Source of the DNA: a virus
DNA: 58,049 nt
Reading direction: 5' to 3' (one strand)
IMG/VR virus record: IMGVR_UViG_3300045988_088962
Below are positions 17,726 through 51,781 of this stretch, in pieces. Every line of letters starts with the position of its first letter. The first letter of the stretch is position 1. The translations under genes and the position numbers were made by a program. The notes below the pieces were generated by a model that did no database searches, was not told the origin of the DNA, and worked only from the letters and a program-made list of their open reading frames with translations.

Positions 17726-17803
17726 TGGTGCTGCATAATGGATTTGAACCAATGTATGTCCGGTTATGAGCCGGGTGCTCTAGCCTAACTGAGCTAATGC
17801 AAC
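17726..17803 (-). tRNA. tRNA with a CAT anticodon (Met, or Ile2 if lysidinylated), with CCA encoded.
   Basis: I folded it by hand. It has a 7-bp acceptor stem (GTTGCAT/ATGCAGC, one G:U), a D arm GCTC..GAGC, the loop CTCATAA, a T loop TTCAAAT and a 3' ACCA. There is one mismatch each in the anticodon and T stems. Confidence 0.75.
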
Positions 17804-20162: not shown

Positions 20163-20552
20163 TCAAATAATGTTCGCTTGCTCATCAAGCCACGTTTCGC
20201 GGTCAAGTCTTTCCTTCTTTTCGATTAAGGTAGGAGTAAACGTTTTATCGCTCTTCCATCCAGCGTATTTCTTAAAATACGCAAGATAATCTTCTGCTAT
20301 TGCGGGAATGCTTTCCAAAATAAATGTAAGAAGAGCAACTCTCATTTGCCGCTTAAACGTTTCGGAAGGGCCTTCTTTCTTGAAATCAAAAAATATGTTT
20401 TCATCATAAAACAAAACATTGCATTTCTTAGATTGGCATTCCAGCATAAAGGAAGTAAAATCTTTGCAGTTTACAAAATCGAAAACCGAACGAAATGTCA
20501 AATCTGCATCTTTTTTGATAAAATCCCAATAAAACGGTTTTTGCTTTTCCAT
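20163..20552 (-). CDS. Hypothetical protein (AT-rich island cargo).
   Basis: 129 aa with an AAGGAGG RBS. It is visibly AT-rich and I recognised no motif. Confidence 0.6.
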   Translation of the reverse strand: MEKQKPFYWDFIKKDADLTFRSVFDFVNCKDFTSFMLECQSKKCNVLFYDENIFFDFKKEGPSETFKRQMRVALLTFILESIPAIAEDYLAYFKKYAGWKSDKTFTPTLIEKKERLDRETWLDEQANII

Positions 20553-20644: not shown

Positions 20645-21301
20645 TTAGCGGTGGCTTGTGGTTGGGCTGCCGCTATTTTTATTTGCGTATCTTTCGACAC
20701 GCTCATACCAAGTGGATTTCCCTATGCCAAGCTGCTTGCAGCACTCTTTTACAGTGATTTCGCCTTTTTTCTGTTGTTTTAATAGGCTTTCAAACTGCTG
20801 CTCGTCAACTTGCTTTTCCTGTCTGCCGAAGCTACGGCCTGTTCTGGCTGACACTCGCTTGCCGTCAACAATGGGCATAGCAGCTATACCCTCTGCCTGA
20901 CGCTGCTTGGTTTTCTTGCGCTCCTGTTCAGCTACTGCGCCCAAAACTTCAATAAGGATGTTGTTCACCATTTCCAGCACCCATGTCTGGTCTTGAAAAT
21001 CAATCAGCGTAGTTGGAATGTCAAGGATGCGAACAATCACGCCTTTTTCTTTAAACCACTGAAGTTCTCGCTTCATCTCGTCTTTGTCACGCCCGAATCG
21101 GTCAAATTCCTTAACAATGACCTCATCCCCAGCCTTGACAGTCTCTTTTAATCGTTTATATTGCGGGCGATCAAAGCTACTGCCTGTCATTTTATCACAA
21201 AATACGTTCTCGTCCGGGATGTCAAACCGATCTCGTGCGATTTTAAGCTGTCTTGCAAGACTTTGTTCCTTACTAGACACTCTAGCTAAGAAGTATTGCA
21301 T
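20645..21301 (-). CDS. Small serine recombinase (resolvase/invertase family).
   Basis: It has the N-terminal YFLARVSSKEQS catalytic-Ser motif and a C-terminal HTH (ITVKECCKQLGIGKSTWY). At 218 aa it has the resolvase-type layout. Confidence 0.85.
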   Translation of the reverse strand: MQYFLARVSSKEQSLARQLKIARDRFDIPDENVFCDKMTGSSFDRPQYKRLKETVKAGDEVIVKEFDRFGRDKDEMKRELQWFKEKGVIVRILDIPTTLIDFQDQTWVLEMVNNILIEVLGAVAEQERKKTKQRQAEGIAAMPIVDGKRVSARTGRSFGRQEKQVDEQQFESLLKQQKKGEITVKECCKQLGIGKSTWYERVERYANKNSGSPTTSHR

Positions 21302-25414: not shown

Positions 25415-26107
25415 ATGAAAATCGATATTACAAAGTACTGGGAACGCCTGTGGGCGGAAGGCCTCTTTGCTGCAATCATCCTTGAAGAGGATTTCAACCT
25501 CGACGAAAACGGGGCACCTCGTGCGGACTGCACCAACTGGGAGCAAGATTTCCGCGCAGAGCTCAACGGCTATATTACCGACAACAAGTGCTGCGAGGAG
25601 CGTAAAGAGGACTACAGCAAGGCTCTTGCGATTCTTGGCGAGATGGAGCAGGCAGCAGCAGAACAGGACAACGCCCCCGCCGCCCCTGCCGCCCCAGACT
25701 ACGCCGCACTTGCCGATACCATCCGCGCCGAACTCAACGCCCGCCACGATCGCAGCGTATGGGATAAGGCCGTCACGCTGTACGCACTCGATCTGTTGGA
25801 CGATGTGCAGGAGGGCGCGGACAACATGGAGCGCTTGCCCCTTGACGGTGCAGAGCTTGAGCGGTGGGCGCTCAACGGTGCAAGCTGCTGGGAGCAGTAC
25901 AGCAATGGCGGTTGCTCCCTCTGCTATGATGCCGATATTGCCGCCCGCGTTTGCACCCCGTCCGAACTCAAGCGTAAACACGGCGGAGCGTATAAGCCCA
26001 ATAGCCGGGAAACGTGGCTTGACGTGCAAGCCCGTGCGCTGTACCAAGCTTGCAACCGTATCCGCACCATCTGCCGCGCCAACGGCCTGTATTATAAGGA
26101 GGTCTAA
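25415..26107 (+). CDS. Hypothetical protein.
   Basis: 230 aa with a CAGGAGGA RBS. It is the first gene of a three-gene operon. Confidence 0.7.
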   Translation: MKIDITKYWERLWAEGLFAAIILEEDFNLDENGAPRADCTNWEQDFRAELNGYITDNKCCEERKEDYSKALAILGEMEQAAAEQDNAPAAPAAPDYAALADTIRAELNARHDRSVWDKAVTLYALDLLDDVQEGADNMERLPLDGAELERWALNGASCWEQYSNGGCSLCYDADIAARVCTPSELKRKHGGAYKPNSRETWLDVQARALYQACNRIRTICRANGLYYKEV

Positions 26108-27360: not shown

Positions 27361-28261
27361 ATAGTCGCAGCGTTCCGGCTGGAATAGTCGTAACAGCTTC
27401 TGGAATAGTCGTAGTTTCTCCCGGCGGATAGTCGTGGGATAGTCGTAAAGTCGTCAGATGACTAGCTTTTGAAAGTCCTATATATCGTATAGTAACAAGC
27501 AGTCCGCTGATAGTCGTAGATCAATAGTCGTAGCGTTTTCTTGCGAATTGCCGTCAAATAGTCGTGTAATTTTTGTGTGAAATAGTCGTTTGCCTTTTAG
27601 GAAAAGAGAGGCGCGATAGTCGATAAGCCATCCGACCACCCCCAAAATCAATATATGTCAAGACACCTGTCAATTTTATTCTCATCTAGCCATACCAAAT
27701 TCGTATGCCAACAGTACTTATTATAATATACGCTTATATATCCTAGTAACTATCTAGGGATTATTCTGCTGAAATAGTCGTATCATCCGATTCGGTTTGT
27801 TCCTGCTCGATTTAATTCCCAGTAACACGCTATGGTATATCGTTCAATCCATAGCATTCTGCTAGGAATAGTATATGCAACATTTGTACATATCAAACCG
27901 ACTACAAAATGAAGTCAATTCTCCATGCGAAATAGTCGTAGACTGTCCACCAGTCCGAACCTCACGCTAGTTCTTTCCTATGGTATGCTCTACTGGCTAA
28001 CGGTCTGGCTTTTGGAGATAGAGGGTTGTAGGGAGAAAGAACCTTTGCAAAACATCCGATTGTCGTTTCCGGTTGTCGCAGTTGTCGCACCATTTTTGCG
28101 TGGGGGCCTCAAACAATTTATTTGTTTGAGGGGGAAGTTAAGGGGATTATAGGAGGTAATAGGGGTTATAGGGGAAAGAGGGGGAAGAAAGGGGGGAAGA
28201 TTGGATGCAAACGCATACAAGTGCATTCATTTGCATTCAAACGCATCTTTCCGATAGTCGC
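27361..28261 (+). repeat. Iteron field, the candidate phage origin of replication: at least 13 same-orientation copies of ATAGTCG(T/C).
   Basis: Copies start at 27361, 27384, 27405, 27428, 27439, 27510, 27524, 27558, 27582, 27616, 27774, 27932 and 28254. An AT-rich block lies at about 27640-27760. The field is adjacent to the replication genes. Confidence 0.7.
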
Positions 28262-28882: not shown

Positions 28883-30106
28883 TTACATCCACACACATTC
28901 TTTGAACTGCTGTGTCTCCATCTGAAACGTGATGTCCAGTGAGCCTACGTTGCCCTCTTTGTTCTTCTCAAGCGCAAAGTGATAATGCTCTTCTGGTCTC
29001 TTTTGCGTTTTCACTTTCTGTGCCAGCAAGATGATCGCATCTGCGTCCTGCTCGATCTGTCCGCTCTCTCGTAGGTCTGCGGCGGTCGGTGGGATGCCCG
29101 CTCTTGCGGTCTCTCGATTGAGCTGCGCCAGTGCCACCACCAGCGTTCCCGTGGACTGTGCGAACTCATGCAGTGCTATGCTGATTTCCGTGACGGCACT
29201 GTATCGGTCTTTCGCTCCGGCTTGATGGATAAGCTGCAAATAGTCGATGAACACCACTTTTGCCTGCATCCTGATGGACTGCGTTCTAATCCACCCAACG
29301 CTCTTACCAGCAGCAGAACGGACGAATAGCGGATATTTCTTGATAGCTGCCAGTCGGTCAAGCTCGTTAATGCTGACTGTTTTGTTTTTGACTGTGTGCA
29401 GCGGTACGCCTAGCTGGTTTGCGATGATACGAGCGTAGAGCGTGTCTGGGTCAGTCTCTAGGCTGAAATACGCCACCTTGCGTCCGCTCTTGGCTATTTC
29501 ACAGGCAAGTTGCAGTGACAGAGCGGTCTTACCAGCAGACGGTCTGCCGCCGATCACAACGAAGTTGCCCGGCACAAGATGCAAGTTGTTATCCAGCACT
29601 CTGAGCCCTGTGCTGATATACTCCGGCTTATCATCCAGCTTGCGGATGTAATTGTCTATACCATCGCACATCGGGATGAAATCGCTTCTCTCGCTGTGCA
29701 GGTTGATAGCTTCGCCTAGCTGCTCATAGATGCCCGTCAAGTCTGCGTATCGGGTCGAGCCATCAACGATTTTGAAAGCAAGCCCTCTGGCTCTGGTCAA
29801 TGCTGCCTGTTCCTTGACGATTCTAGCCCAGCCCTGCATCATGTCATGGGTGACGTTGCGGATGAACTCTGCACCAAAGGCATCTAGGCATTCGCCCATA
29901 GCTTTCTTGCAGTTATCGTACCGGCCCATGACTTCTACCGGGTTCCACTTGTCATTGTGTTCCCAATAGCCAAGAATGGCAGCGAATGTATCACGCAGTT
30001 CTGGGCAAAAATCGTCGATTTTAAGGTCTTGTAGCACATCGGCGTATTCCGAGAACGTGAGGACTGCTCCCAGCAGGATGTATTGAATCTGATTTTCAAT
30101 ATTCAC
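28883..30106 (-). CDS. dnaB: Replicative DNA helicase (DnaB-like).
   Basis: It has Walker A GGRPSAGKTA and a DnaB-type N-domain. The GTG start overlaps the upstream stop (GTGA). Confidence 0.85.
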   Translation of the reverse strand: MNIENQIQYILLGAVLTFSEYADVLQDLKIDDFCPELRDTFAAILGYWEHNDKWNPVEVMGRYDNCKKAMGECLDAFGAEFIRNVTHDMMQGWARIVKEQAALTRARGLAFKIVDGSTRYADLTGIYEQLGEAINLHSERSDFIPMCDGIDNYIRKLDDKPEYISTGLRVLDNNLHLVPGNFVVIGGRPSAGKTALSLQLACEIAKSGRKVAYFSLETDPDTLYARIIANQLGVPLHTVKNKTVSINELDRLAAIKKYPLFVRSAAGKSVGWIRTQSIRMQAKVVFIDYLQLIHQAGAKDRYSAVTEISIALHEFAQSTGTLVVALAQLNRETARAGIPPTAADLRESGQIEQDADAIILLAQKVKTQKRPEEHYHFALEKNKEGNVGSLDITFQMETQQFKECVWM

Positions 30107-30783
30107 CGCAGAAAGTCTCCCTCGTCAGGCAATTCAGCCATTGTCTGCTGATAGCCACCGTTCCAGTCCTTTACGTTACGCATCCAGTTTCGTGCAGCGG
30201 CTTTCCAGTCCTTCATAGGCGATTTGCCGACCTTCCAACCATTTGCCGTGAAATGGTCAACAAACCGCTCTGCTTCCGATTCTATGTAGCCCTTCTCGGA
30301 AAAGTATTCTCTTGCTTGCTCGGCAGTCGGTGCTTTGAAGCGTTTGACTTCGTTGGTATTTTTCTTTTCACATTTTTCTTTTTTATCAGATTCAGATACA
30401 GAATCAGATACAGATAAGCTACCATTCGTATCAGTTGGTATGTTTGGTATACTATTTATACCATTCGTATCCTGCGATACCATTGGTATGCTTTCGTATT
30501 TTTTATCATTCCAACGCTTGTTTATATTTTTCTTGTTTGCTTCTCGTCTACGCTTATCACGTTCTTCCATTTTCTGCACGTTCATATCATCAAACGCCTT
30601 AACAACTTTCCAAAGCATCCGCATAGCACGGTCGTTGTCGTATGCTGGCTCAAGTCTGGTCTCAACGTATTGTGCATAGTTGCGGACGAACGCTCCAAAT
30701 TCCTCGTCCGTCAATTCGTCCATAGCATGGACGTGTTCCAACAGAAGAATCATTGATGTTCTCGGCTTGTGTTGCTGATCCAT
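30103..30783 (-). CDS. Replication protein (replisome organizer / DnaD-like, candidate iteron binder).
   Basis: It is directly coupled to dnaB. The C-terminus reads EYFSEKGY...FVDHFTANGWKVGKSPMKDWKAAARNW. The ATG at 30783 lies 2 nt after the upstream stop. Confidence 0.55.
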   Translation of the reverse strand: MDQQHKPRTSMILLLEHVHAMDELTDEEFGAFVRNYAQYVETRLEPAYDNDRAMRMLWKVVKAFDDMNVQKMEERDKRRREANKKNINKRWNDKKYESIPMVSQDTNGINSIPNIPTDTNGSLSVSDSVSESDKKEKCEKKNTNEVKRFKAPTAEQAREYFSEKGYIESEAERFVDHFTANGWKVGKSPMKDWKAAARNWMRNVKDWNGGYQQTMAELPDEGDFLR

Positions 30784-30785
30784 AT

Positions 30786-31076
30786 TCAGTCCTCTTTGTA
30801 GCGTTTGTTCCATGCTTCGACAGCATCCTCTGCCGTGTCAAACAGTGCGCCACCCATGCTTTGATTGTCTCCATCCGTGCAAAGGATACATTTGCCCCAT
30901 CCTTCGTGATGCAAGTCATAAGAAAGCCCGCTCCACGGGTCTTGTTCGTACTCGCATCCCAAACGACCATGAAAGTTGCCTTCATCATCGCACACGCCAA
31001 TGTAAACTGCGTTCTTGCCGCAGAACGGGCATCTCTTGAGTTCTTCCATTTTTTTACCCTTTTCGTCCATGCTCAT
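30786..31076 (-). CDS. lar: Lar-like restriction alleviation protein.
   Basis: The pattern LKRCPFCGKNAV...C..C...DAVEAWNKR matches the Lar family signature. Confidence 0.6.
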   Translation of the reverse strand: MSMDEKGKKMEELKRCPFCGKNAVYIGVCDDEGNFHGRLGCEYEQDPWSGLSYDLHHEGWGKCILCTDGDNQSMGGALFDTAEDAVEAWNKRYKED

Positions 31077-43778: not shown

Positions 43779-43921
43779 TTGACAAGTACGGAAAACTGTA
43801 CTAATATAATGGTGTAGAGAGTTCATATTGTACAGTGTTCTGTACTGCCTATGTCTGTATTATAGTACAGAACACTGTACAAGTCAACTATTTTGTACAA
43901 AATTATGTGCATTTGTATACT
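43779..43921. promoter_or_regulatory. Lysis-lysogeny switch region: three 18-bp palindromic operators plus at least three candidate promoters.
   Basis: Operators: O3 AGTACGGAAAACTGTACT (43785-43802), O2 TGTACAGTGTTCTGTACT (43829-43846) and O1 AGTACAGAACACTGTACA (43864-43881). The minus-strand promoter is TTGACT-17-TATAAT (43887-43859). The plus-strand candidates are TTGACA-17-TAATAT (43779-43807) and TTGTAC-17-TATACT (43893-43921). Confidence 0.7.
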
Positions 43922-43944
43922 TGCACAAATATGGGAGTGTTCTT

Positions 43945-44274
43945 ATGTCGGACTTGTACAGCAATATCCATGCACTCTGCGAAAAAGAGGGAATCAAAGA
44001 CGGAACTCTTTGTGCCAACATCGGTATTCGCCGTAGTTTTCTTTCCGAGCTGAAAGCCGGGAGAACAAAAAGCCTGTCCGCAGAGGTTCTTTCTAAAATT
44101 GCAGCCTACTTCAACGTATCGGTAGACTACCTTCTCACTGGCGAACAAAAAGAAAACCCGCACCAGCAGCCGCAAAGTGAAGTTGATGCAGCAGTGGAAA
44201 GGATTAGAAAAAAGCTTGAATCTATGCCGACAGCGCAACGTGAAGCGCTGATGAACCTAATCGAGAAGATGTGA
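43945..44274 (+). CDS. CI-like repressor (HTH XRE family, no peptidase domain).
   Basis: LCEKEGIKDGTLCANIGIRRSFLSELKAGRTKSLSAEVLSKIAAYFNVSVDYLL. It is divergent from the cro-like gene. Confidence 0.7.
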   Translation: MSDLYSNIHALCEKEGIKDGTLCANIGIRRSFLSELKAGRTKSLSAEVLSKIAAYFNVSVDYLLTGEQKENPHQQPQSEVDAAVERIRKKLESMPTAQREALMNLIEKM

Positions 44275-45060: not shown

Positions 45061-45654
45061 ATGGATGAATATTTGTTAAGAACTGCAAAGGCATTGGAAA
45101 TGGCACGGATGCGTTCCGGTCTGAGCCAGCAGAAATTAGCAGCACGAATGGGCGTGAATCGTGGCACGATTGCCAACTGGGAGCAAGGTCTGGCGGCTAT
45201 TTCCCTACCAATGGCTATGCGCTGGTTCACCTGCTGCGGCGTATCGGCGGCTCGATACATGGACGCTTGCATTTATCCTGGACTGCTGGAGCATCTGGAA
45301 GACGACCTTTCCAACATGGAAAAGCGTCAGATTCTCATAGATGCCATGATTGAATGTTCTTCCTACGAGATAGATGCTTTGTTGTACATCCGGTACGGAG
45401 ACCACGGTTCAGACCACATGGGCGTGCTGACGGAGGTTCTGGCAAACCTCCATACGCCATTGAAGGACAGGGTCTCTGTTTGCCGGATGGTATCGGGCAA
45501 CTATGAGATAGCGCAGGCTACCGGGACAGACCCAGACCCGAATGGAACCGCCCCGAAGATGGAGATTCTTTATCAAGCGCAAGATGCCGGGACAGAAGCA
45601 GCCATGAAGTCCAACGATTCCTATACTGTTAATCCCAATAATATAAGCGGTTGA
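45061..45654 (+). CDS. HTH XRE-family regulator upstream of the plasmid-type origin.
   Basis: MARMRSGLSQQKLAARMGVNRGTIANWEQG. Confidence 0.6.
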   Translation: MDEYLLRTAKALEMARMRSGLSQQKLAARMGVNRGTIANWEQGLAAISLPMAMRWFTCCGVSAARYMDACIYPGLLEHLEDDLSNMEKRQILIDAMIECSSYEIDALLYIRYGDHGSDHMGVLTEVLANLHTPLKDRVSVCRMVSGNYEIAQATGTDPDPNGTAPKMEILYQAQDAGTEAAMKSNDSYTVNPNNISG

Positions 45655-45697
45655 TTGTCGAATTATCGCAGTTTTTGAGGAACATTTTGTCCACGTT

Positions 45698-46193
45698 TAT
45701 CCACTTTTTGTACACCTATCGGGCAAATCTACCTTGTCATTCCGTCCCCCATAGGCTATGAACCGACAATATTTGCGCATAATAAACAACGAATTAGCGC
45801 TAATTTATCGTTTGCGATTAAGCAGCTTGTCAATCCGTCCCCCATAACACCGGCTTAAAATTTTTTTATCCACTTTTTGTACACGTTAGGTAAACCTAAC
45901 CGTTAAGCGTTTCAACCTTTCGGATGTTAAGCATCTGTTTATTTAGCAGTATTCGCTTTGTGTTTTCCACTTTTCAGGAGAAAAAGAAAAGATTTTGTGG
46001 AAAATTTTCTTCTTCTGCTATTAGTAGAAGTTATTTTATAATCTTGTTAATAGTCTTGTTTTATATAATGTAAAGAGGTGTACAAAAAATGGATATAGGT
46101 GTACAGATTGTGGAAATGGGTGTACGAAATGTGGACGGTTAGGTGTACAAAAAGTGGAAACAGGTGTACGTTAACTATTGACTTGTACACCTG
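45698..46193. repeat. Rep iterons (GGTGTAC-N7-8-GTGGA), a plasmid-type origin.
   Basis: Forward copies start at 46077, 46098, 46119, 46142 and 46163 (21-23 bp spacing). Inverted copies lie at 45698-45716, 45867-45884 and 46183-46193. The inverted copies contain the DnaA-box-like TTATCCACT. Confidence 0.75.
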
Positions 46194-46206
46194 TTTGCGA
46201 TATACT
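46178..46206 (+). promoter_or_regulatory. rep promoter overlapped by an inverted iteron half-site.
   Basis: TTGACT-17-TATACT, with a spacer that contains TGTACACCTG. Confidence 0.6.
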
Positions 46207-46223
46207 ATTATACGAGAGGAGGC

Positions 46224-47318
46224 GTGATAAGAGTGTCCGATATTAAAGGCGGGAACTTGGTTGAAAAGAGCCGACAGCTTGTTTGGGCAAAGTTCACTGA
46301 TTATACAGCAGGAGAGCTTCGGTTGCTTGAAGTGTATCTTAGCCGTATCAATCCGAGAGACCCCGAAACTTCAACGGTTCAGTTTACGTTACAAGAATAT
46401 TGCGAATTTTTGGGGTTGAAAATCAACTCTAGGAATTTGAAAGCGCAGGTCAAGCATTTCATCGACAACTCCGTTGAAGTTCCTAGAGGCGACGGTTCAG
46501 GCTCGTTTGACTTGTATCCCCTGTTCAGTAGAGCAACGGTAAACTTTGAACCTAGTTTGATGAATATTACTGTGTCATTGTGTTGCAATCCGCTTCTGCA
46601 ACCTGTTTTCTTCGACATTGCGGAGCGTGGATATGTCAAGTACCGCTTGCGCTACACAGCGAATATGAAATCGCAGTATAGCATTTTGCTGTATTCAATT
46701 CTCCGAGAGTTCATCGGACGTGGCGTGAGCCAGCCCGAAATTACGTTGGATAGATTAAGGGAACAGCTTGGCGCAAGAGAACCTAGCTATCAAGAGTTCA
46801 AGCATCTTAGGCGGCGTGTCATTGATATTGCGGTAGCTGAAATAAACGAAGTATCAGACCTGTGCGTTGAATATGACAAGGTCATGAGAGGTCGCAATGC
46901 GGTTGCTGTGAAGTTCGATGTAGCTTTCAAGTCTAATGAGCCAGTCATAGACGTGGAAGCTAACGAGGTTGAAAGCGTAGAGCTAAAAGATGTTCCAAAG
47001 AGCCAACGACCTGCCAGAAAGCCCCGCAGTGGCGCATATGAGGATGTGGATTGGGCATCTATTGCGCCGGAGATGTCTAAAAGCCAGTGTATCTTGACTG
47101 CAAAACTGGTGGCAAAGAGATTGCCGGAGAAGTATCCGAACATCAAGCCTAACAAGAAAAAAGAAGCTGTTGTGAACATCATTGAGAATGCATACAGGAT
47201 TCTTGTCAGTGAGCGACTTGATAGGATTGAAAAAGACCCCGGCGCTTATATGTACTCAATTTTGAAAGAAGCAGACATTGACGATTATGCTACGTTTGAC
47301 GATAGCTTCTTGAAGTAG
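46224..47318 (+). CDS. rep: Plasmid replication initiator (Rep_3/RepB-like).
   Basis: LVEKSRQLVWAKFTDYTAGELRLLEVYLSRINPRD...FTLQEYCEFLGL resembles the Rep_3 N-domain, and iterons lie immediately upstream. It has a GTG start (46224 or 46233) after AGGAGG. Confidence 0.75.
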   Translation: MIRVSDIKGGNLVEKSRQLVWAKFTDYTAGELRLLEVYLSRINPRDPETSTVQFTLQEYCEFLGLKINSRNLKAQVKHFIDNSVEVPRGDGSGSFDLYPLFSRATVNFEPSLMNITVSLCCNPLLQPVFFDIAERGYVKYRLRYTANMKSQYSILLYSILREFIGRGVSQPEITLDRLREQLGAREPSYQEFKHLRRRVIDIAVAEINEVSDLCVEYDKVMRGRNAVAVKFDVAFKSNEPVIDVEANEVESVELKDVPKSQRPARKPRSGAYEDVDWASIAPEMSKSQCILTAKLVAKRLPEKYPNIKPNKKKEAVVNIIENAYRILVSERLDRIEKDPGAYMYSILKEADIDDYATFDDSFLK

Positions 47319-47378
47319 TCAGATACAACGCATTATGCAGAATGAGCACAGCGAGCAAATAAAGCAGAAAGGAGCGGT

Positions 47379-47645
47379 ATGAAGAAACAGGAAATTGTGT
47401 GGTATTCCGTTAAAGATGATGGGATGCCAACACAAGAAATCATTGAAAAAGCGAAAGGTCGGTTCTTGTGTTCGGTAAAAACGGCCTATCTAAAAGATGA
47501 ATCTATAACGGCAACAAACACAGTCGCAGCGTTTATTGAAAAGAGCGAGTTTGTAAACACATCGTTTCAGAGGTTGAACATTTCTTCGGACGCTTGCTTT
47601 ATTGCAAGAGTGGAAGCGTGGGCAGAAATGCCGATATACGAATAA
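47379..47645 (+). CDS. DUF551-like small protein.
   Basis: EIVWYSVKDDGMP...VEAWAEMP. Confidence 0.45.
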   Translation: MKKQEIVWYSVKDDGMPTQEIIEKAKGRFLCSVKTAYLKDESITATNTVAAFIEKSEFVNTSFQRLNISSDACFIARVEAWAEMPIYE

Positions 47646-47660
47646 AGAAAGAGTGATAAA

Positions 47661-48437
47661 ATGGCAAAAATCATAGCGGTCGCCAACCAGAAGGGCGGCA
47701 CAGGAAAGACCACCACAAGCACCTGTCTGGCTGGTGCGTTGCAGTTGCTTGGCAAGAAGGTGTTGCTGGTGGACTGCGATGCCCAGTGCAACGCAACGGA
47801 CACATACGGCGCACAGACAGAGGACGTGTGCACTCTGTTCGATGTAATGACCCGGCAAGGTACAGTAGAGGAAGGAATTCAGCACTGCGAAGCCGGTGAC
47901 ATTCTGCCGTCAGACAACGCATTGAAGGACATTGACGAGCAGCTTGTCCGGGACATTGGCAAGAACTTCCGGCTGCGTGAAGCGCTGGAATCCGTGTCTG
48001 CACAGTACGATTACATCGTTCTGGACACTCCCCCGCAGCTCGGTCTTGCGCTTGTAAACGCTCTGATCGCCGCTAACAGCATCATCGTTCCCATTACAGC
48101 AGACCGCTATGCGCTTGCCGGATTGAGCCAACTTTCGCAGACCATCGGCGATGTTCGCAGATACTTCAACCCGACTTTGAAGATTGAAGGTCTGCTTCTG
48201 AACCAGTACAAGAGCCGTGAGAACCTGTCCAAAGAGGTTGTAGAGCAGCTTCCTGTGATTGCAGAAAGCATGGGAACGAGGCTTTTGGGCGTAAAGATTA
48301 GACCGTCTATGGGTGTTCGTAAGGCGCAGGCAGAGCGGCACAGCCTGTTTAGCGGCGACACGGCAAAGAGCACCAGCGCAGAGGACTTTAAGGCTTTGGC
48401 GCAGATGATTGTAGAGGGGAAAGAAAAATGCGACTGA
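47661..48437 (+). CDS. parA: ParA/Soj-family partition ATPase.
   Basis: It has the deviant Walker A AVANQKGGTGKTTT and is 258 aa long. Confidence 0.9.
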   Translation: MAKIIAVANQKGGTGKTTTSTCLAGALQLLGKKVLLVDCDAQCNATDTYGAQTEDVCTLFDVMTRQGTVEEGIQHCEAGDILPSDNALKDIDEQLVRDIGKNFRLREALESVSAQYDYIVLDTPPQLGLALVNALIAANSIIVPITADRYALAGLSQLSQTIGDVRRYFNPTLKIEGLLLNQYKSRENLSKEVVEQLPVIAESMGTRLLGVKIRPSMGVRKAQAERHSLFSGDTAKSTSAEDFKALAQMIVEGKEKCD

Positions 48438-48739
48438 TTGATGCAGAAAATTTAAAAGAAACATACAAAAGCTGGATTTCAGAATATATTCAAAAAGGCA
48501 ACAATTCTTCTAAAGTAGAAGCAACCAGAAAATGTATCATGATGATAGATTATATAAATTCTTATAACGAAGAAGACGCAAGGCCTTCTGCGGAATGGGT
48601 TGTTACGGACGAAGAGAGAGATTGTGCTTGTTGCAGTAGGTGTGGATGGTATATCGACAGACCGAATGCTTCGTTTGCAATTTCAAGATATAAATATTGC
48701 CCAAATTGTGGTGCATGGATGGGAGGAATTGTGAGATGA
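48428..48739 (+). CDS. Hypothetical Zn-ribbon protein within the par operon.
   Basis: CACCSRCG...CPNCG. It overlaps both neighbouring genes. Confidence 0.55.
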   Translation: MRLIDAENLKETYKSWISEYIQKGNNSSKVEATRKCIMMIDYINSYNEEDARPSAEWVVTDEERDCACCSRCGWYIDRPNASFAISRYKYCPNCGAWMGGIVR

Positions 48740-49308
48740 AGTCAACCAGCAAAAAAACATCCGGTTTGTTGGGCGGGTTTGACTTCCAGCCTGTTTTTTC
48801 GGAACAGACATTAAGCCGAAGTGAACCAAAGGAAGAAGAAGTAAGCCAAACAAAGCCGAATAATGCCGAACAAGCACCGATTAAGCCTAGTGGAGCCACA
48901 GACAGCCATGCACGGCCGAGTGAAGCAGAATTAAGCAGTATTAAGCCGAAGCGAGTCAAAGACAGCGAAAGACAGCCAAATGATGCCGTATTAGGCGAAG
49001 GTAAGCCGAAGAAGCTGAAACAGGCGAAAGAAACGAAGCGGCTGATTGAACAGGGCAATATTCCCGGCGCACTAGCCGAAGCTGGCTTGACAAAGAAAAA
49101 AATCCCGATGCCGGAATCGCATCAGGGCGTTGCAAGCGGTGACGGCAAGCGTTCTAAGCGCATTACCATCCTTATGAGCGAGGAAGAACGCAAGTACATC
49201 AACCGTGAAGCCAGACGGCACGGAATGACGATTGGACAGTTCGTGTACGCTCTGGCTGCTGCTGCGGCAGACGGGAAGATTGAACTGGAGGATTTCTTGG
49301 AGGATTGA
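48736..49308 (+). CDS. RHH (ParG/CopG-like) candidate centromere-binding protein with a repeat-containing N-terminal tail.
   Basis: The C-terminus KRITILMSEEERKYINREARRHGMTIGQFVYALAAAA is RHH-like. GGGAGG lies before the ATG at 48736, and there is an alternative internal ATG at 49108. Confidence 0.6.
   Translation: MKSTSKKTSGLLGGFDFQPVFSEQTLSRSEPKEEEVSQTKPNNAEQAPIKPSGATDSHARPSEAELSSIKPKRVKDSERQPNDAVLGEGKPKKLKQAKETKRLIEQGNIPGALAEAGLTKKKIPMPESHQGVASGDGKRSKRITILMSEEERKYINREARRHGMTIGQFVYALAAAAADGKIELEDFLED
48811..49020 (+). repeat. Twenty-one tandem degenerate 10-bp units (nnaAGCCgaa), a candidate partition centromere embedded in the coding sequence.
   Basis: Read directly: ttaagccgaa gtgaaccaaa ggaagaagaa gtaagccaaa caaagccgaa taatgccgaa ... 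gtaagccgaa gaagctgaaa. Confidence 0.7.
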
Positions 49309-49311
49309 TGT

Positions 49312-49869
49312 ATGATTGTTTATAGACCTCATCGTGGTTCTTTGGAAGATGCCATGAAAGAAGTAAAAACATTTGACAACTGGTATCAGATGACACATTA
49401 TATTGCAAATAATTGGAATTTGGCGGTTGGCAAGAAAGTGATAGACCCTGACGATATTGTTATGGACGACAAACCGGTCAATGATGACCGTGTTGGTTGG
49501 AAAGACGTTCACATGGTTTTGGCAACTCGTATTTGGAATGACAATTTTATGGAAAAATACGGAAACTCGCAGTGTATCGGGTATTGCACTTACGATGTCT
49601 CAAGTGTCAAAAAATACTTAACACCGAAAGAAGTAGGGGGCGAAAACTTTTATTGGGTCAAAATCCAGTACGATGATGACGAAAAATGCAGACACTTTCA
49701 AGCTCAGTTCGTCTTGTTTGCAAATGACAAGGATGAAGCAAAGGCTAAAATCGAGCGAGAAGTCCCCGGAAAATTCTCCATCGTTGGCATAGTTGAGCTT
49801 GATAAGAGCCTTGTATTCCATCCGCAAGACTTATTTGACATAAAAGCTAGGTCTGTACTTTGGGAATGA
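49312..49869 (+). CDS. Hypothetical protein.
   Basis: 185 aa within the operon. Confidence 0.6.
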   Translation: MIVYRPHRGSLEDAMKEVKTFDNWYQMTHYIANNWNLAVGKKVIDPDDIVMDDKPVNDDRVGWKDVHMVLATRIWNDNFMEKYGNSQCIGYCTYDVSSVKKYLTPKEVGGENFYWVKIQYDDDEKCRHFQAQFVLFANDKDEAKAKIEREVPGKFSIVGIVELDKSLVFHPQDLFDIKARSVLWE

Positions 49870-49882
49870 GGGTGGAGAAATT

Positions 49883-50290
49883 ATGCGCACATATAAGCCA
49901 CACAAGCGCAGGAGCAAAGAGGAACAAGCCAAAATAAATGCAGAGGCAACAAAACGTAAAGCAAAACTGGCTGAAAAGTACAATACTGGCACTCAATATT
50001 ACAAGGGTATTCCTGTTGAGCTGATTGTAAGAGAGGACTACGGTTGCTACAAAGCAAAGCGTTTCAAAATCAATAATAGCAATCAGAATGTGTGGATTCC
50101 AAACTGCTATCTCGAAGATGACGGAACAATCAAGGCGAATATGAACATTGACTTTGTATTCCGTAAGTCTGTAAACCAGTTAAACAAAGCTGGAATCACG
50201 CAAGCAATTATCGGCATCAAACGTAAAATGCCGGAAGCAGATGTGCCAAATCTCAAAAGCACCATGCAGAAAATCGGAGATAAGATTTAA
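49883..50290 (+). CDS. Hypothetical protein.
   Basis: 135 aa with a GGGTGGAG RBS. Confidence 0.6.
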   Translation: MRTYKPHKRRSKEEQAKINAEATKRKAKLAEKYNTGTQYYKGIPVELIVREDYGCYKAKRFKINNSNQNVWIPNCYLEDDGTIKANMNIDFVFRKSVNQLNKAGITQAIIGIKRKMPEADVPNLKSTMQKIGDKI

Positions 50291-50302
50291 GGAGAGATTG
50301 CT

Positions 50303-50560
50303 ATGACTTACGGAGAAATGAGCAACTATATCACTCATATTAGTGACAATGACTTGGTTGCGTTGTGCAAGAGCGTTTACGAGTTCAAGAATGGAAATGG
50401 TGTGTTGGAGCCCACTTCGACACTCAAAATTCTTGCAGAAAACCTACAGTTTTCTGATGTGAGAGCGTTGGAATATGCCATTACAGAAGAAGCGCATAAA
50501 CGGTATGGACAGATTGTATTGCTTCTCATGAAAGATGCCCCGTCGCATTATTTGAAATGA
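50303..50560 (+). CDS. Hypothetical protein.
   Basis: 85 aa with an AAGGAGAG RBS. Confidence 0.6.
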   Translation: MTYGEMSNYITHISDNDLVALCKSVYEFKNGNGVLEPTSTLKILAENLQFSDVRALEYAITEEAHKRYGQIVLLLMKDAPSHYLK

Positions 50561-50581
50561 TGAGTTTTAAGGAGAATCATA

Positions 50582-50749
50582 ATGGGTAAGTATGTGAAGC
50601 GAGAAAATGTCTTAAAAAAGCTAAAAGATGTATCAAAATTGGCAGACGGAAAATCTGGCAAAGCGGTGATTGCGTTACTTAGAGCATCTTTGGAGAACAT
50701 TCCTTACATTGTGGTTGAAGAAGGAATTAAGCAAAACGATAAAAACTAA
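50582..50749 (+). CDS. Small hypothetical protein (55 aa).
   Basis: AAGGAG RBS. It is below the ORF-track cutoff. Confidence 0.45.
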   Translation: MGKYVKRENVLKKLKDVSKLADGKSGKAVIALLRASLENIPYIVVEEGIKQNDKN

Positions 50750-50816
50750 GTTCTAAAGTTAAAATAGAAGAACCCCTGTGTAGCCACAACGACCGCACAG
50801 GGGAGAAAGGAATAAT

Positions 50817-51086
50817 ATGAGCGAAAAAGCAAGAATGTACATAAAATGTTGCCTAGAGAGAAACAAAAGAATTATATATCACGATTTATTGTTTCTTTTG
50901 TTTTCTGCGTTGATTGAGGGATATTTTATTCGTCAATTCATATTTGAAAATCATTCGTTTGTTTATATTGTGCTTATTATGCTGGATGCTTTTCTCGCAT
51001 TCAATGTAGCAAAAGAGCTATCCGAATTTGAAAAAGAATCTGAAATCTTAAAAAATATATTAGAAAAAGGTGATGAAAAGTGCTAA
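50817..51086 (+). CDS. Two-TM membrane protein (AT-rich cassette).
   Basis: LLFLLFSALIEGYFI and FVYIVLIMLDAFLAF are the TM segments. AAAGGAATAAT lies before the ATG. Confidence 0.55.
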   Translation: MSEKARMYIKCCLERNKRIIYHDLLFLLFSALIEGYFIRQFIFENHSFVYIVLIMLDAFLAFNVAKELSEFEKESEILKNILEKGDEKC

Positions 51087-51186
51087 TATATGTTTTTGTA
51101 GGAATATGTTGTATAGGGATGTTTATTTGCGTGAGTTCTTTTTTGCAGAGCCATTTGACAACGAGGGCGGAAAAGAATATGCAATA

Positions 51187-51543
51187 ATGGCTGTTGCGGG
51201 GATTGTTTTAACAATACTTGGCGTTGTTCTGATGATAGCAAACGTAGAATACAATTCGTCCCATCCTATCGTATCGAATTATGATTTACAAGAAATCGAA
51301 CCGGGAATATATGCCTATACATCGACTGTCGTTTCAAATATTCCAGCGGAAAATTATGAAATGTGTACAGTTTTAATAAATGGGCAGTACATTACAATTA
51401 AAGGAACCGTAAAAATAGCGAAATCGGATGGAAGCACTCCTAAAATAAAATGGGAAAACAGGCGCATAGTCAACGGAGATACTGTTACGATTTATGCTGA
51501 TATAAACCAAATAAAAAATAATGGCGTAAGAGCCATATCTTAA
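51187..51543 (+). CDS. Signal-anchored beta-rich protein (AT-rich cassette). The ORF is open from 51070.
   Basis: MAVAGIVLTILGVVLMIANV is followed by a soluble domain. The start is uncertain. Confidence 0.5.
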   Translation: MAVAGIVLTILGVVLMIANVEYNSSHPIVSNYDLQEIEPGIYAYTSTVVSNIPAENYEMCTVLINGQYITIKGTVKIAKSDGSTPKIKWENRRIVNGDTVTIYADINQIKNNGVRAIS

Positions 51544-51553
51544 CGAGGGCTTT

Positions 51554-51736
51554 ATGGAAGAGTATAAAGATAGTATTGCGATTATTGAAGAAAACGAAAT
51601 CGAAAAACGAAAGTCTGAATATGGAAATCGCTTTTGTAAAATAACTAAAGAAATGATAGAAAGTTTAGTAAACGAGAAAATTCTAATGATAAATAACGGA
51701 GAATATTGTACTTTTTTAAAATATTTCCAAGATTAA
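51554..51736 (+). CDS. Small hypothetical protein (AT-rich cassette).
   Basis: 60 aa, immediately followed by a terminator. Confidence 0.45.
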   Translation: MEEYKDSIAIIEENEIEKRKSEYGNRFCKITKEMIESLVNEKILMINNGEYCTFLKYFQD

Positions 51737-51741
51737 ACAAA

Positions 51742-51781
51742 CCCCTGTGCGGTCATTACAACTGCACAGGGGTTTTCTGTT
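51742..51781. terminator. Bidirectional terminator between convergent operons.
   Basis: CCCCTGTGC-13 nt-GCACAGGGG followed by TTTTCTGTTTT, with an A-rich tract upstream. Confidence 0.75.

Follow-up and report, generated by a model that had tools for sequence, protein, structure and literature searches.

The phage-plasmid P1, a 94-kb myovirus of Proteobacteria (Escherichia coli), has no integrase. It encodes an iteron-binding initiator, with five iterons in the origin and more outside it, together with ParA-based partition and a separate lytic replicon. Its initiator, RepA, falls outside the Pfam family Rep_3, its partition system is of type Ia (a large ParA with a helix-turn-helix (HTH) domain, ParB and parS), and its resolvase is the tyrosine recombinase Cre. 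Type Ib partition systems, such as ParF/ParG of TP228 and delta/omega of pSM19035, consist of a small Walker ParA and a ribbon-helix-helix (RHH) protein with an unstructured N-terminal part. To our knowledge, what is understood mechanistically about phage-plasmids comes almost entirely from the Proteobacteria (P1, N15 and SSU5). The subject here is the viral DNA IMGVR_UViG_3300045988_088962 (58,049 bp; the window, meaning the whole stretch analysed), and in particular a rightward gene block in which an origin, a rep gene and a partition gene pair lie together. The analysis makes it likely that this 58-kb gut phage is inherited as a low-copy circular plasmid and is not integrated.

P1 is the closest functional analogue: the logic of replicon, partition, recombinase and lytic replicon is the same, and the phage is likewise integrase-free. 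Unlike P1, it has a Rep_3 initiator (WH1 and WH2), a small ParA with an RHH partner and a small serine enzyme, and it is a 58-kb siphovirus-type phage with a presumed Bacillota host. An earlier note, made from this DNA sequence, had likened the element to P1, N15 and SSU5. The likeness to P1 stands (iteron-dependent Rep, par, a putative dimer-resolving recombinase and a separate lytic replicon); that to N15 does not, since N15 is a linear element that depends on a protelomerase, an enzyme not found among the ORFs scanned. With the phage-plasmids described by Pfeifer et al. 2021 (PMC7969092), which are reportedly frequent in Clostridia and include Bacillus examples, the phage shares a phage core combined with plasmid replication and partition genes, the lack of an integrase and a possible dimer-resolving recombinase. 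Among gut viral operational taxonomic units, 6.2% group with phage-plasmids (bioRxiv 10.1101/2025.02.07.636470). The lifestyle is already known, and what is new here is an uncultured and very abundant human-gut family: the core resolvase protein is found unchanged in 737 assemblies, the partition partner forms 831 clusters at 90% identity, and 575 viral contigs share the portal. A literature search turned up reviews and gut surveys of phage-plasmids and no description of this family. In GenBank, its near relatives among phages are confined to "Bacteriophage sp." fragments that lack annotation and come from human faeces, and no cultured or annotated phage was found to exceed 52% identity in TerL.

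The window carries an exact 89-bp direct repeat at its two ends, which makes the assembly circular or circularly permuted, with a length of 57,960 bp, and bears out the single circle proposed in the earlier note. Leftward transcription dominates 1-45 kb and 51.8-58 kb; the rightward block occupies 44.98-51.74 kb, and both GC and AT skews switch there. All 65 open reading frames (ORFs) of at least 150 aa in the six frames were scanned with Pfam, and two ORFs spanning the junction of the circle (86 and 111 aa) were inspected. Late genes identified in this way encode a GH25 lysin, tail proteins, a 1376-aa tape measure protein, capsid E, an SPP1-type portal and TerL. Replication and recombination genes encode a DnaB helicase, a DUF6291 protein and ERF, and the regulators comprise HTH repressors of the Cro/CI type with two antirepressors, Rha/ANT and AntA/ORF6C. 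The phage functions by which a phage-plasmid is recognised (packaging, virion, lysis and lysogeny control) are all represented, in agreement with the virion, lysis and lysogeny-switch gene set of the earlier note; a plasmid Rep and a ParA are present with Pfam matches above gathering scores, and an integrase was not found. The window is best explained as a complete genome, circular and belonging to a temperate phage of siphovirus type with a host among the gut Bacillota, and the relatives make the Firmicutes-type host suggested before plausible. The junction-spanning ORF of 111 aa resembles a small membrane protein.

The core of the rightward block is made up of the following features.

45061..45654, plus strand: HTH_3 protein, 197 aa as called in relatives (mechanical ORF from 44977); HTH_3 E 7e-10, with matches to PHROG transcriptional repressor families
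45682..45886, no strand assigned: distal array of inverted own iterons A1 and A2 and inverted repeats B1 and B2
45976..46076, no strand assigned: AT-rich region and candidate DNA-unwinding element, 23% GC against 49% for the genome, adjoining the iterons
46077..46169, plus strand: five direct iterons GGTGTAC-N5-6-(A/G)TGGA, predicted Rep-binding sites
46178..46206, plus strand: rep promoter TTGACT-17-TATACT, scoring 10 of 12 in a promoter scan
46224..47318, plus strand: Rep_3-family initiator (WH1 and WH2) by Pfam; PHROG 4402, "replication initiation protein"
47661..48437, plus strand: ParA-type Walker ATPase, 258 aa (AAA_31 E 7.8e-54, CbiA E 3.9e-25)
48736..49308, plus strand: RHH partner, 190 aa, with a weak NikA-like RHH match; gene call as in relatives

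A non-coding region of 570 bp (45655-46223) precedes rep. Within it, GGTGTACnnAnnnTGGA occurs at 46077, 46098, 46119 and 46142, and a fifth repeat with the core GGTGTAC lies at 46163. The resulting spacings of 21, 21, 23 and 21 bp correspond to two helical turns, and the coordinates 46077-46169 corroborate the five iterons at 21-23-bp spacing that had been reported in front of Rep. The iteron motif matched six times in the 58-kb window, all within 45700-46158, against an expectation of 0.12. The adjoining AT-rich region contains a TCTTGTT pair that is conserved in every Rep variant, as judged from an alignment of 12 variants. The spacer of the rep promoter holds an inverted half-iteron, GTACACCTGTTT (46185-46196), which forms a perfect 12-nt palindrome with iteron 5 and may serve as an autorepression operator. 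Further upstream, TTATCCACT, a possible DnaA box that agrees with the consensus TTATCCACA at eight of nine positions, is found at 45698-45706 and 45867-45875, where it overlaps inverted iterons. The layout of iterons, putative unwinding element and putative autoregulatory operator is that of a textbook Rep_3 theta replicon. It resembles the Rep_3 iteron plasmids (pSC101, pPS10, F with RepE, R6K with Pi) in the WH1 and WH2 domains, the iterons of about 22 bp, the AT-rich region and the inverted repeat in the rep promoter. Unlike those plasmids, it has a Rep with a 130-aa extension, lies inside a phage genome and is accompanied by a distal array of more than one iteron specificity.

The initiator itself matches Rep3_N (PF01051, E 3.4e-21, residues 13-160) and Rep3_C (PF21205, E 7.2e-16, residues 174-232), each exceeding its gathering score, so that the profile search proposed in the earlier note confirms its Rep_3/RepB-like initiator. 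The 130-aa extension follows WH2 at the C terminus. Translation probably starts at the GTG at 46233, which is preferred because it is better spaced from AGGAGG (46216-46221); the resulting length of 361 aa agrees with that of database homologues. Outside the phage family, the nearest homologues of Rep (42% identity) are carried by small plasmids of gut Clostridia (3-6.6 kb) that also encode a Mob_Pre relaxase, and NCBI attributes one 42%-identity homologue to a [Clostridium] leptum metagenome-assembled genome. A tblastn search with Rep returned 2284 plasmid records against 11 phage records, and the best match in PLSDB was a 6.9-kb plasmid of Mediterraneibacter gnavus, while at the DNA level no similarity was found between the window and PLSDB plasmids. 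One of the 11 phage records is Burkholderia phage KS14, which persists as a plasmid and whose homologue (34% identity over residues 127-238) is annotated as a replication initiation protein. KS14 differs in being a P2-like myovirus of a proteobacterium, and the similarity is limited to the WH2 region. A plasmid ancestry of Rep is supported by these comparisons of sequence, and the module draws its parts from Rep_3 plasmids together with type Ib partition systems.

A search with Rep recovered at least 162 related IMG/VR contigs, and loci were compared in detail in the best 80. These 80 contigs mostly measure 55-61 kb and are circularly permuted, Rep lying anywhere along them and on either strand. 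The HTH-ori-Rep-ParA-RHH block is found in essentially all of the more than 160 related viral contigs. Across the 80 loci, the HTH gene is present in 77, Rep in 80, ParA in 79, RHH in 78 and a leftward DUF7841 gene in 71; the ORFs between the core genes and the cargo are patchy. The HTH_3 protein, the first gene product of the rightward block and always encoded directly upstream of the origin, occurs as two alleles (about 90-100% and 54-61% identity, typically about 92% and about 59%) whose distribution does not follow the Rep type, and it may be a regulator or second repressor. The same gene order (early genes, HTH, ori, Rep, ParA, RHH, cargo, lysis/tail) recurs in more than 160 IMG/VR contigs and in independent ENA, Logan, JGI and NCBI assemblies. 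Such recurrence bears directly on the possibility that the association of phage and plasmid genes is artefactual, arising either from chimeric assembly or from a prophage inserted in a plasmid. Metagenome assemblies of the family do yield inter-strain chimeras. Given, however, that the order recurs in independent assemblies, that a genome of 55-61 kb leaves no space for a separate plasmid backbone and that the Pfam scans of the window ORFs revealed no conjugation or mobilisation genes, an artefact of this kind is effectively refuted.

At least five Rep variants could be distinguished by their identity to the query (97-100%, about 69-71%, 55%, about 50% for T4 and about 50% for T5). When the Rep gene and 200 bp upstream were compared (loci L001-L080, L087 and L095-L099), each variant was found to be preceded by four to five direct repeats. 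Four variants have distinct iteron cores (GGTGTAC, CG(A/T)GGAC, GGTATAC and GGGGGAC), and the T5 core, (C/T)GTGTAC, is nearly that of T1. The iteron sequence tracks the Rep variant in 82 of 82 loci. An inverted half-iteron of the origin's own type is present in the promoters of types 1, 2, 4 and 5, and none was seen in type 3 origins. The co-variation of Rep and iteron is the strongest indication, among those that sequence can give, that the repeats may be functional Rep sites. By contrast, ParA is 85-97% identical in 78 of 80 relatives, irrespective of the Rep variant. Given that ParA is near-constant while Rep and its iterons vary, the unwinding element, iterons and rep appear to be swapped as a cassette on a conserved backbone.

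The distal array lies upstream of this cassette. Sites A1 (45696-45717) and A2 (45865-45886), the inverted copies of the phage's own iteron, bracket B1 (45733-45753) and B2 (45826-45846), which are inverted copies of the 21-bp repeat CTTGTCAWTCCGTCCCCCATA. In the window the B repeat is confined to the distal array, against an expectation of 0 copies. The A sites correspond to inverted T1/T5 iterons, and the B sites match inverted type-4 iterons: when eight T4 iterons taken from two other genomes served to build a weight matrix, B1 and B2 were the top sites of the window at 23.8 and 22.5 bits, followed by the next site at 16.0. Given that one of 20 shuffles reached 23.1 bits, the argument rests on the pairing and location of B1 and B2 and not on single scores. 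The array is conserved across all Rep types (L001-L080, L087, L095 and L097), and over 62 distinct sequences the A and B blocks are more conserved (0.87-0.93) than the spacers (0.72-0.74). In T2 and T3 genomes the array has extra inverted iterons of the genome's own type at its proximal edge, and several genomes of other Rep types likewise contain T3-type copies. A type-2 iteron in the array of the window was considered and rejected, since the core plus spacer (CGTGGACAAAATGT at 45682) alone matches and the full-length matrix does not single out the site; for this genome, the case for a type-2 member of the array is weak.

From these matches, every genome would appear to carry additional sites that suit its own Rep as well as one or more foreign Reps. 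A speculative reading, possible but on balance doubtful, is that the distal array is a multi-specificity "iteron bank" that keeps sites for the phage's own Rep and for those of sibling phage-plasmids. Such a bank could conceivably capture the initiator of a sibling that infects the same cell, by titration or by handcuffing, which would amount to exclusion at the level of replication, or to an engineered incompatibility, among competing phage-plasmids. It is also conceivable that it acts as a universal adaptor for swaps of the unwinding element-iteron-rep cassette between conserved flanks, by which incompatibility would be escaped. Given the very similar backbones, recent cassette exchange alone could also explain the foreign sites. 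Were the array indeed such a bank, either function would represent an undescribed way for plasmid incompatibility to shape phage populations.

Partition genes follow rep in the same direction. The AAA_31 match of ParA begins at residue 2, the Walker A motif KGGTGKTT occupies residues 11-18, and there is no N-terminal HTH; the protein thus appears type Ib-like, without the N-terminal DNA-binding extension. A match to PHROG 164, "ParA-like partition protein" (E 1e-57), and the AAA_31 and CbiA matches above gathering scores establish the ParA Walker ATPase of the earlier note. The mechanical ORF of the partner spans 48697-49308. Translation probably begins with the ATG at 48736, as called in relatives, where it overlaps the stop codon of the ORF before it. 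A NikA-like RHH is recorded for most of the listed homologue clusters of the partner. In an AlphaFold2 model, helices at residues 149-161 and 166-178 (pLDDT about 80) follow a conserved KRITILM segment. The RHH partner of the earlier note, with its start moved to 48736, is a probable assignment based on a weak RHH match, the homologue clusters and the modelled helices. A sequence search of the PDB with a profile of the partner returned nothing significant. Alignment of ten homologues, one of them 45% identical, revealed an N-terminal peptide, a variable low-complexity linker and a conserved C-terminal KRITILMSEEERKYINREARRHGMTIGQFVYALA. The N-terminal peptide MKSTSKKxxGLLGGFDFQP (48736-48795) has 17 of 19 residues identical even in the 45%-identity homologue, and its conservation makes it a candidate ParA-interaction motif. 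We infer that the partner is a type Ib adaptor, in which a ParA-stimulating tail is joined to a centromere-binding RHH domain. The likeness to type Ib systems lies in a small ParA without an N-terminal DNA-binding domain that is followed by a probable RHH-type protein with an unstructured N-terminal part. Unlike the type Ib partners of about 70-80 aa, this one has 190 aa, a long variable linker and, in the AlphaFold2 model, a possible additional helical pair at residues 91-115. In further contrast to ParF/ParG and delta/omega, variable small genes lie between rep, parA and the RHH gene, and no centromere repeats were found beside the operon. Candidate centromere arrays elsewhere in the window are the distal array (45682-45886) and a heptamer array at 27361-28254, and nothing ties either to the RHH protein. 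The variable genes in the window are the following.

47379..47645, plus strand: small accessory ORF of 88 aa in the rep-parA gap, present in 6 of 80 relatives and without a family match
48428..48739, plus strand: zinc-ribbon-like accessory ORF of 103 aa in the parA-RHH gap, present in 3-4 of 80 relatives

The second of these has a weak Zn_Ribbon_1 match and matches PHROG 22543 (function unknown). Both gaps are insertion hot spots, in which relatives carry other small genes (DUF551 and zinc-ribbon ORFs; L088 and L293-L302) with the core genes undisturbed.

Across the six frames, the Pfam scan of ORFs with 150 aa or more, together with inspection of the junction ORFs, revealed no Phage_integrase, Recombinase/large-serine, rve/DDE transposase or protelomerase match. 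This profile search, which the earlier note had advised, upholds its statement that no tyrosine or large-serine integrase was found; the only site-specific recombinase is a 218-aa enzyme of the resolvase/invertase type, which it had also noticed.

20645..21301, minus strand: small serine recombinase of the resolvase/invertase type, 218 aa (Resolvase N-domain E 2e-21)

The Resolvase domain of this enzyme covers residues 5-141. It matches PHROG 125, "DNA invertase", over its full length (residues 6-212), whereas with the large-serine "integrase" PHROG the catalytic domain alone matches. The recombinase is a core protein of the family (97-100% identical in the 80 contigs retained out of 186 with a relative), and its gene is flanked by variable segments. 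In one relative (IMGVR_UViG_3300029466_000004; L382, 12149-14502) the place of the 218-aa enzyme is taken by a different resolvase of 193 aa (Resolvase and HTH_17), with an RtcB RNA-ligase gene next to it; a small serine recombinase is thus retained there despite the change of allele. The most economical role for the enzyme would be to resolve multimers of the plasmid prophage. A 27-nt inverted repeat (89% match; 20176-20202 and 26005-26031) flanks the recombinase gene and is the only such repeat. It encodes RETWLD(E/V)QA near the C termini of two otherwise unrelated, oppositely oriented genes, and is possibly a recombination joint. A resolvase-controlled invertible segment was rejected, given that this repeat is coding and that an inverted flanking segment was found in none of 80 recombinase loci.

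The nearest cultured phage by TerL is Clostridium phage Maintenon (ON453900; host [Clostridium] innocuum), with 51.9% amino acid identity over 82% of the query. Maintenon resembles the present phage in size (57,045 bp), in its DnaB-type replication module and antirepressor, and in its siphovirus-type late operon. In the place of HTH-ori-rep-parA-RHH it carries an integrase, a LexA-like SOS repressor/protease, a Cro-like repressor and an antirepressor, and the annotation of its first 50 kb lists no Rep_3, ParA or RHH gene. Given this contrast, a similar chassis seems to exist in an integrating version, Maintenon, and in a plasmid version, the present phage.

Chromosomal context was sought in larger assemblies. 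Among the 737 assemblies with the exact 218-aa resolvase protein, the longest carrying contig measured 50-200 kb in 242 and exceeded 200 kb in none; likewise, another Rep variant, present in 129 assemblies, had no contig above 200 kb. Scanning of 185,579 GTDB species-representative genomes with Rep and with ParA revealed no member of the family. An oversized contig of 84.5 kb (IMGVR_UViG_3300029466_000004) was walked by way of segments L465, L038, L303, L382 and L462, so that 81% of it was read. Two portal genes, 100% and 96% identical to the query, are separated by about 56 kb on this contig; the stretch at 56.5-71.7 kb parallels the initial 16 kb at 72-94% identity, and phage tail genes continue beyond the left end of the segment in the middle. 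The duplicated portal and the parallel segments identify this contig as a 1.5-unit concatemer of two co-occurring strains; no host DNA was present in the 81% that was read, and its interpretation as an integrated prophage was rejected. The remaining contigs of 66-115 kb in the family may be similar artefacts, which would inflate estimates of genome size.

Several points weigh against inheritance as a plasmid. A circular assembly also arises from replicating or circularly permuted phage DNA. Further oversized contigs exist (66-115 kb in IMG/VR and 74 kb in GCA_027494455.1), the 84.5-kb one being the only one walked. No res-like repeats were found near the recombinase gene, and no centromere repeats in 47300-47680 or beside the RHH gene. 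The NikA-like RHH match of the partner (E 2.6e-5, 24.7 bits) lies under the cutoff of 27, and the AlphaFold2 model, in which a strand region and two helices span residues 141-178, has a low mean pLDDT of 57.5. The sequence would, moreover, accommodate integration by a host Xer-type recombinase or by the small serine recombinase. An alternative built on this last point is that the temperate phage integrates without the usual integrase, with XerCD acting at a dif-like site or the small serine recombinase serving as the integrase, and that Rep/Par act transiently or as part of a mixed lifestyle. It can draw on the core status of the recombinase, on the several oversized contigs beside the walked one and on elements acknowledged to alternate between integrated and plasmid states (PMC7969092). 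It is considered improbable, given the resolvase/invertase architecture of an enzyme that matches PHROG 125 at full length and has no large-serine C-terminal domains, the 0 of 737 assemblies with a carrying contig above 200 kb, the lack of a copy among the representative genomes and the concatemeric nature of the contig that was walked. Gene content, module conservation and the lack of chromosomal context support the extrachromosomal low-copy plasmid prophage of the earlier note, the extrachromosomal state and copy number being deduced from them.

The replication genes of the phage bear on a further alternative. They lie in the leftward early operon, and a repressor candidate faces this operon.

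28883-30106, minus strand: DnaB_C protein (Pfam)
30103-30813, minus strand: DUF6291 protein (Pfam)
43828..44274, plus strand: Cro/CI-type HTH repressor candidate (HTH_26 E 8.7e-8, HTH_3 E 4.8e-7, Phage_CI_repr E 1e-3)

The DnaB/DUF6291 module (28883..30813, minus strand) would constitute a lytic replicon separate from the Rep_3 origin. Three TACCATT(C/G)GTAT repeats lie within the DUF6291 gene (30420-30511), beside DnaB; they recall an origin embedded in an initiator or organizer gene in the style of lambda O. The earlier note had described a DnaB/organizer module with its own iterons. This claim is confirmed in part, in that DnaB_C, DUF6291 and the three internal repeats are present and the heptamer array downstream is separate. 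Divergent promoter-like sites (43779-43807, plus strand; 43887-43859, minus strand) accompany the 43828..44274 gene, which is a candidate component of the lysis/lysogeny switch and not of the plasmid module.

Ordinary phages also have iteron-binding initiators, lambda O among them. Rep_3 and its iterons could accordingly be the phage's own lytic or early origin and ParA a non-partition protein, in a phage that is virulent or pseudolysogenic. Lysogeny is read here from genes alone, and some ParA homologues of Bacillus phages have been suggested to act in sporulation (PMC7969092). Against this, a second complete phage-type module (DnaB, DUF6291 and ERF) is present in the leftward early operon. 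Moreover, rep-parA-RHH occupies, in a rightward unit next to repressor-type genes, the position of the integrase in Maintenon; the nearest relatives of Rep are plasmid initiators; the pairing of ParA with an RHH protein is the type Ib partition architecture; and the Cro/CI-type repressors with two antirepressors point to a temperate switch. A purely lytic role for the Rep_3 origin is thus given little credence.

Inheritance as a low-copy plasmid can be explained by the following minimal model. Rep monomers would bind the five iterons (46077-46169) and melt the 23%-GC region beside them, leading to theta replication with host factors, and Rep dimers would bind the half-iteron in the rep promoter and repress Rep synthesis. 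A1 and A2 would provide extra Rep sites for the control of copy number by pairing ("handcuffing"), like incA in P1. ParA and the RHH protein, made from the same rightward unit as Rep, would segregate the copies at division, and the 218-aa serine recombinase would resolve plasmid dimers. Upon induction, governed by the Cro/CI-type switch and the antirepressors, the DnaB/DUF6291 module and the ERF recombinase would take replication over, and virions would then be produced from the leftward late operon.

Lifestyle predictors based on integrase would probably label the family "virulent" or "unknown", and binning would probably omit it; the family may thereby contribute to the unexplained surplus of gut phage genomes over phage particles. 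The module, at 45.66-49.31 kb, packs ori, rep and par into 3.7 kb and represents a small replicon for gut Clostridia that lends itself to testing. The five Rep/iteron specificities, carried by backbones that are otherwise almost identical, in turn offer a natural system for studies of incompatibility and cassette exchange.

Beyond the plasmid module, the heptamer ATAGTCG is present in 13 same-strand copies, often 21-24 bp apart, at 27361-28254, a largely non-coding stretch downstream of the DnaB module, against three copies in the rest of the genome. The array is kept in relatives L287-L292 with 9-18 copies and could be a lytic origin, a centromere or a packaging site. Downstream of DnaB, some relatives encode a protein of the RepA_N family (PF06970), a second family of plasmid-type initiators.

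L287, 2507-3211: RepA_N-family protein
L288, 2400-3104: RepA_N-family protein
L291, 2468-3172: RepA_N-family protein
L292, 2945-3649: RepA_N-family protein

The window lacks this protein; similarity is confined to its last 50 aa at the C terminus, which resemble the end of the window's DUF6291 protein. A phage-encoded tRNA-Met (CAT; 17726-17803, minus strand) lies between the portal and TerL genes and was the sole Rfam match in the whole window, so that no known antisense or copy-control RNA was detected. The rightward block ends with variable genes.

49312..51775, plus strand: cargo genes, variable, of low GC content (37%) and patchy in relatives

Neither Pfam nor PADLOC gave a match in the cargo region, and no defence or toxin-antitoxin gene was thus detected there. 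A strong hairpin terminator at 51739-51775 closes the block. Together with a similar GC-rich hairpin at 50771-50803 (AACCCCTGTG...CACAGGGGTT), it flanks a 37%-GC cassette of three small ORFs (50817-51736), which has no counterpart among 80 relatives and looks like a recently acquired moron.

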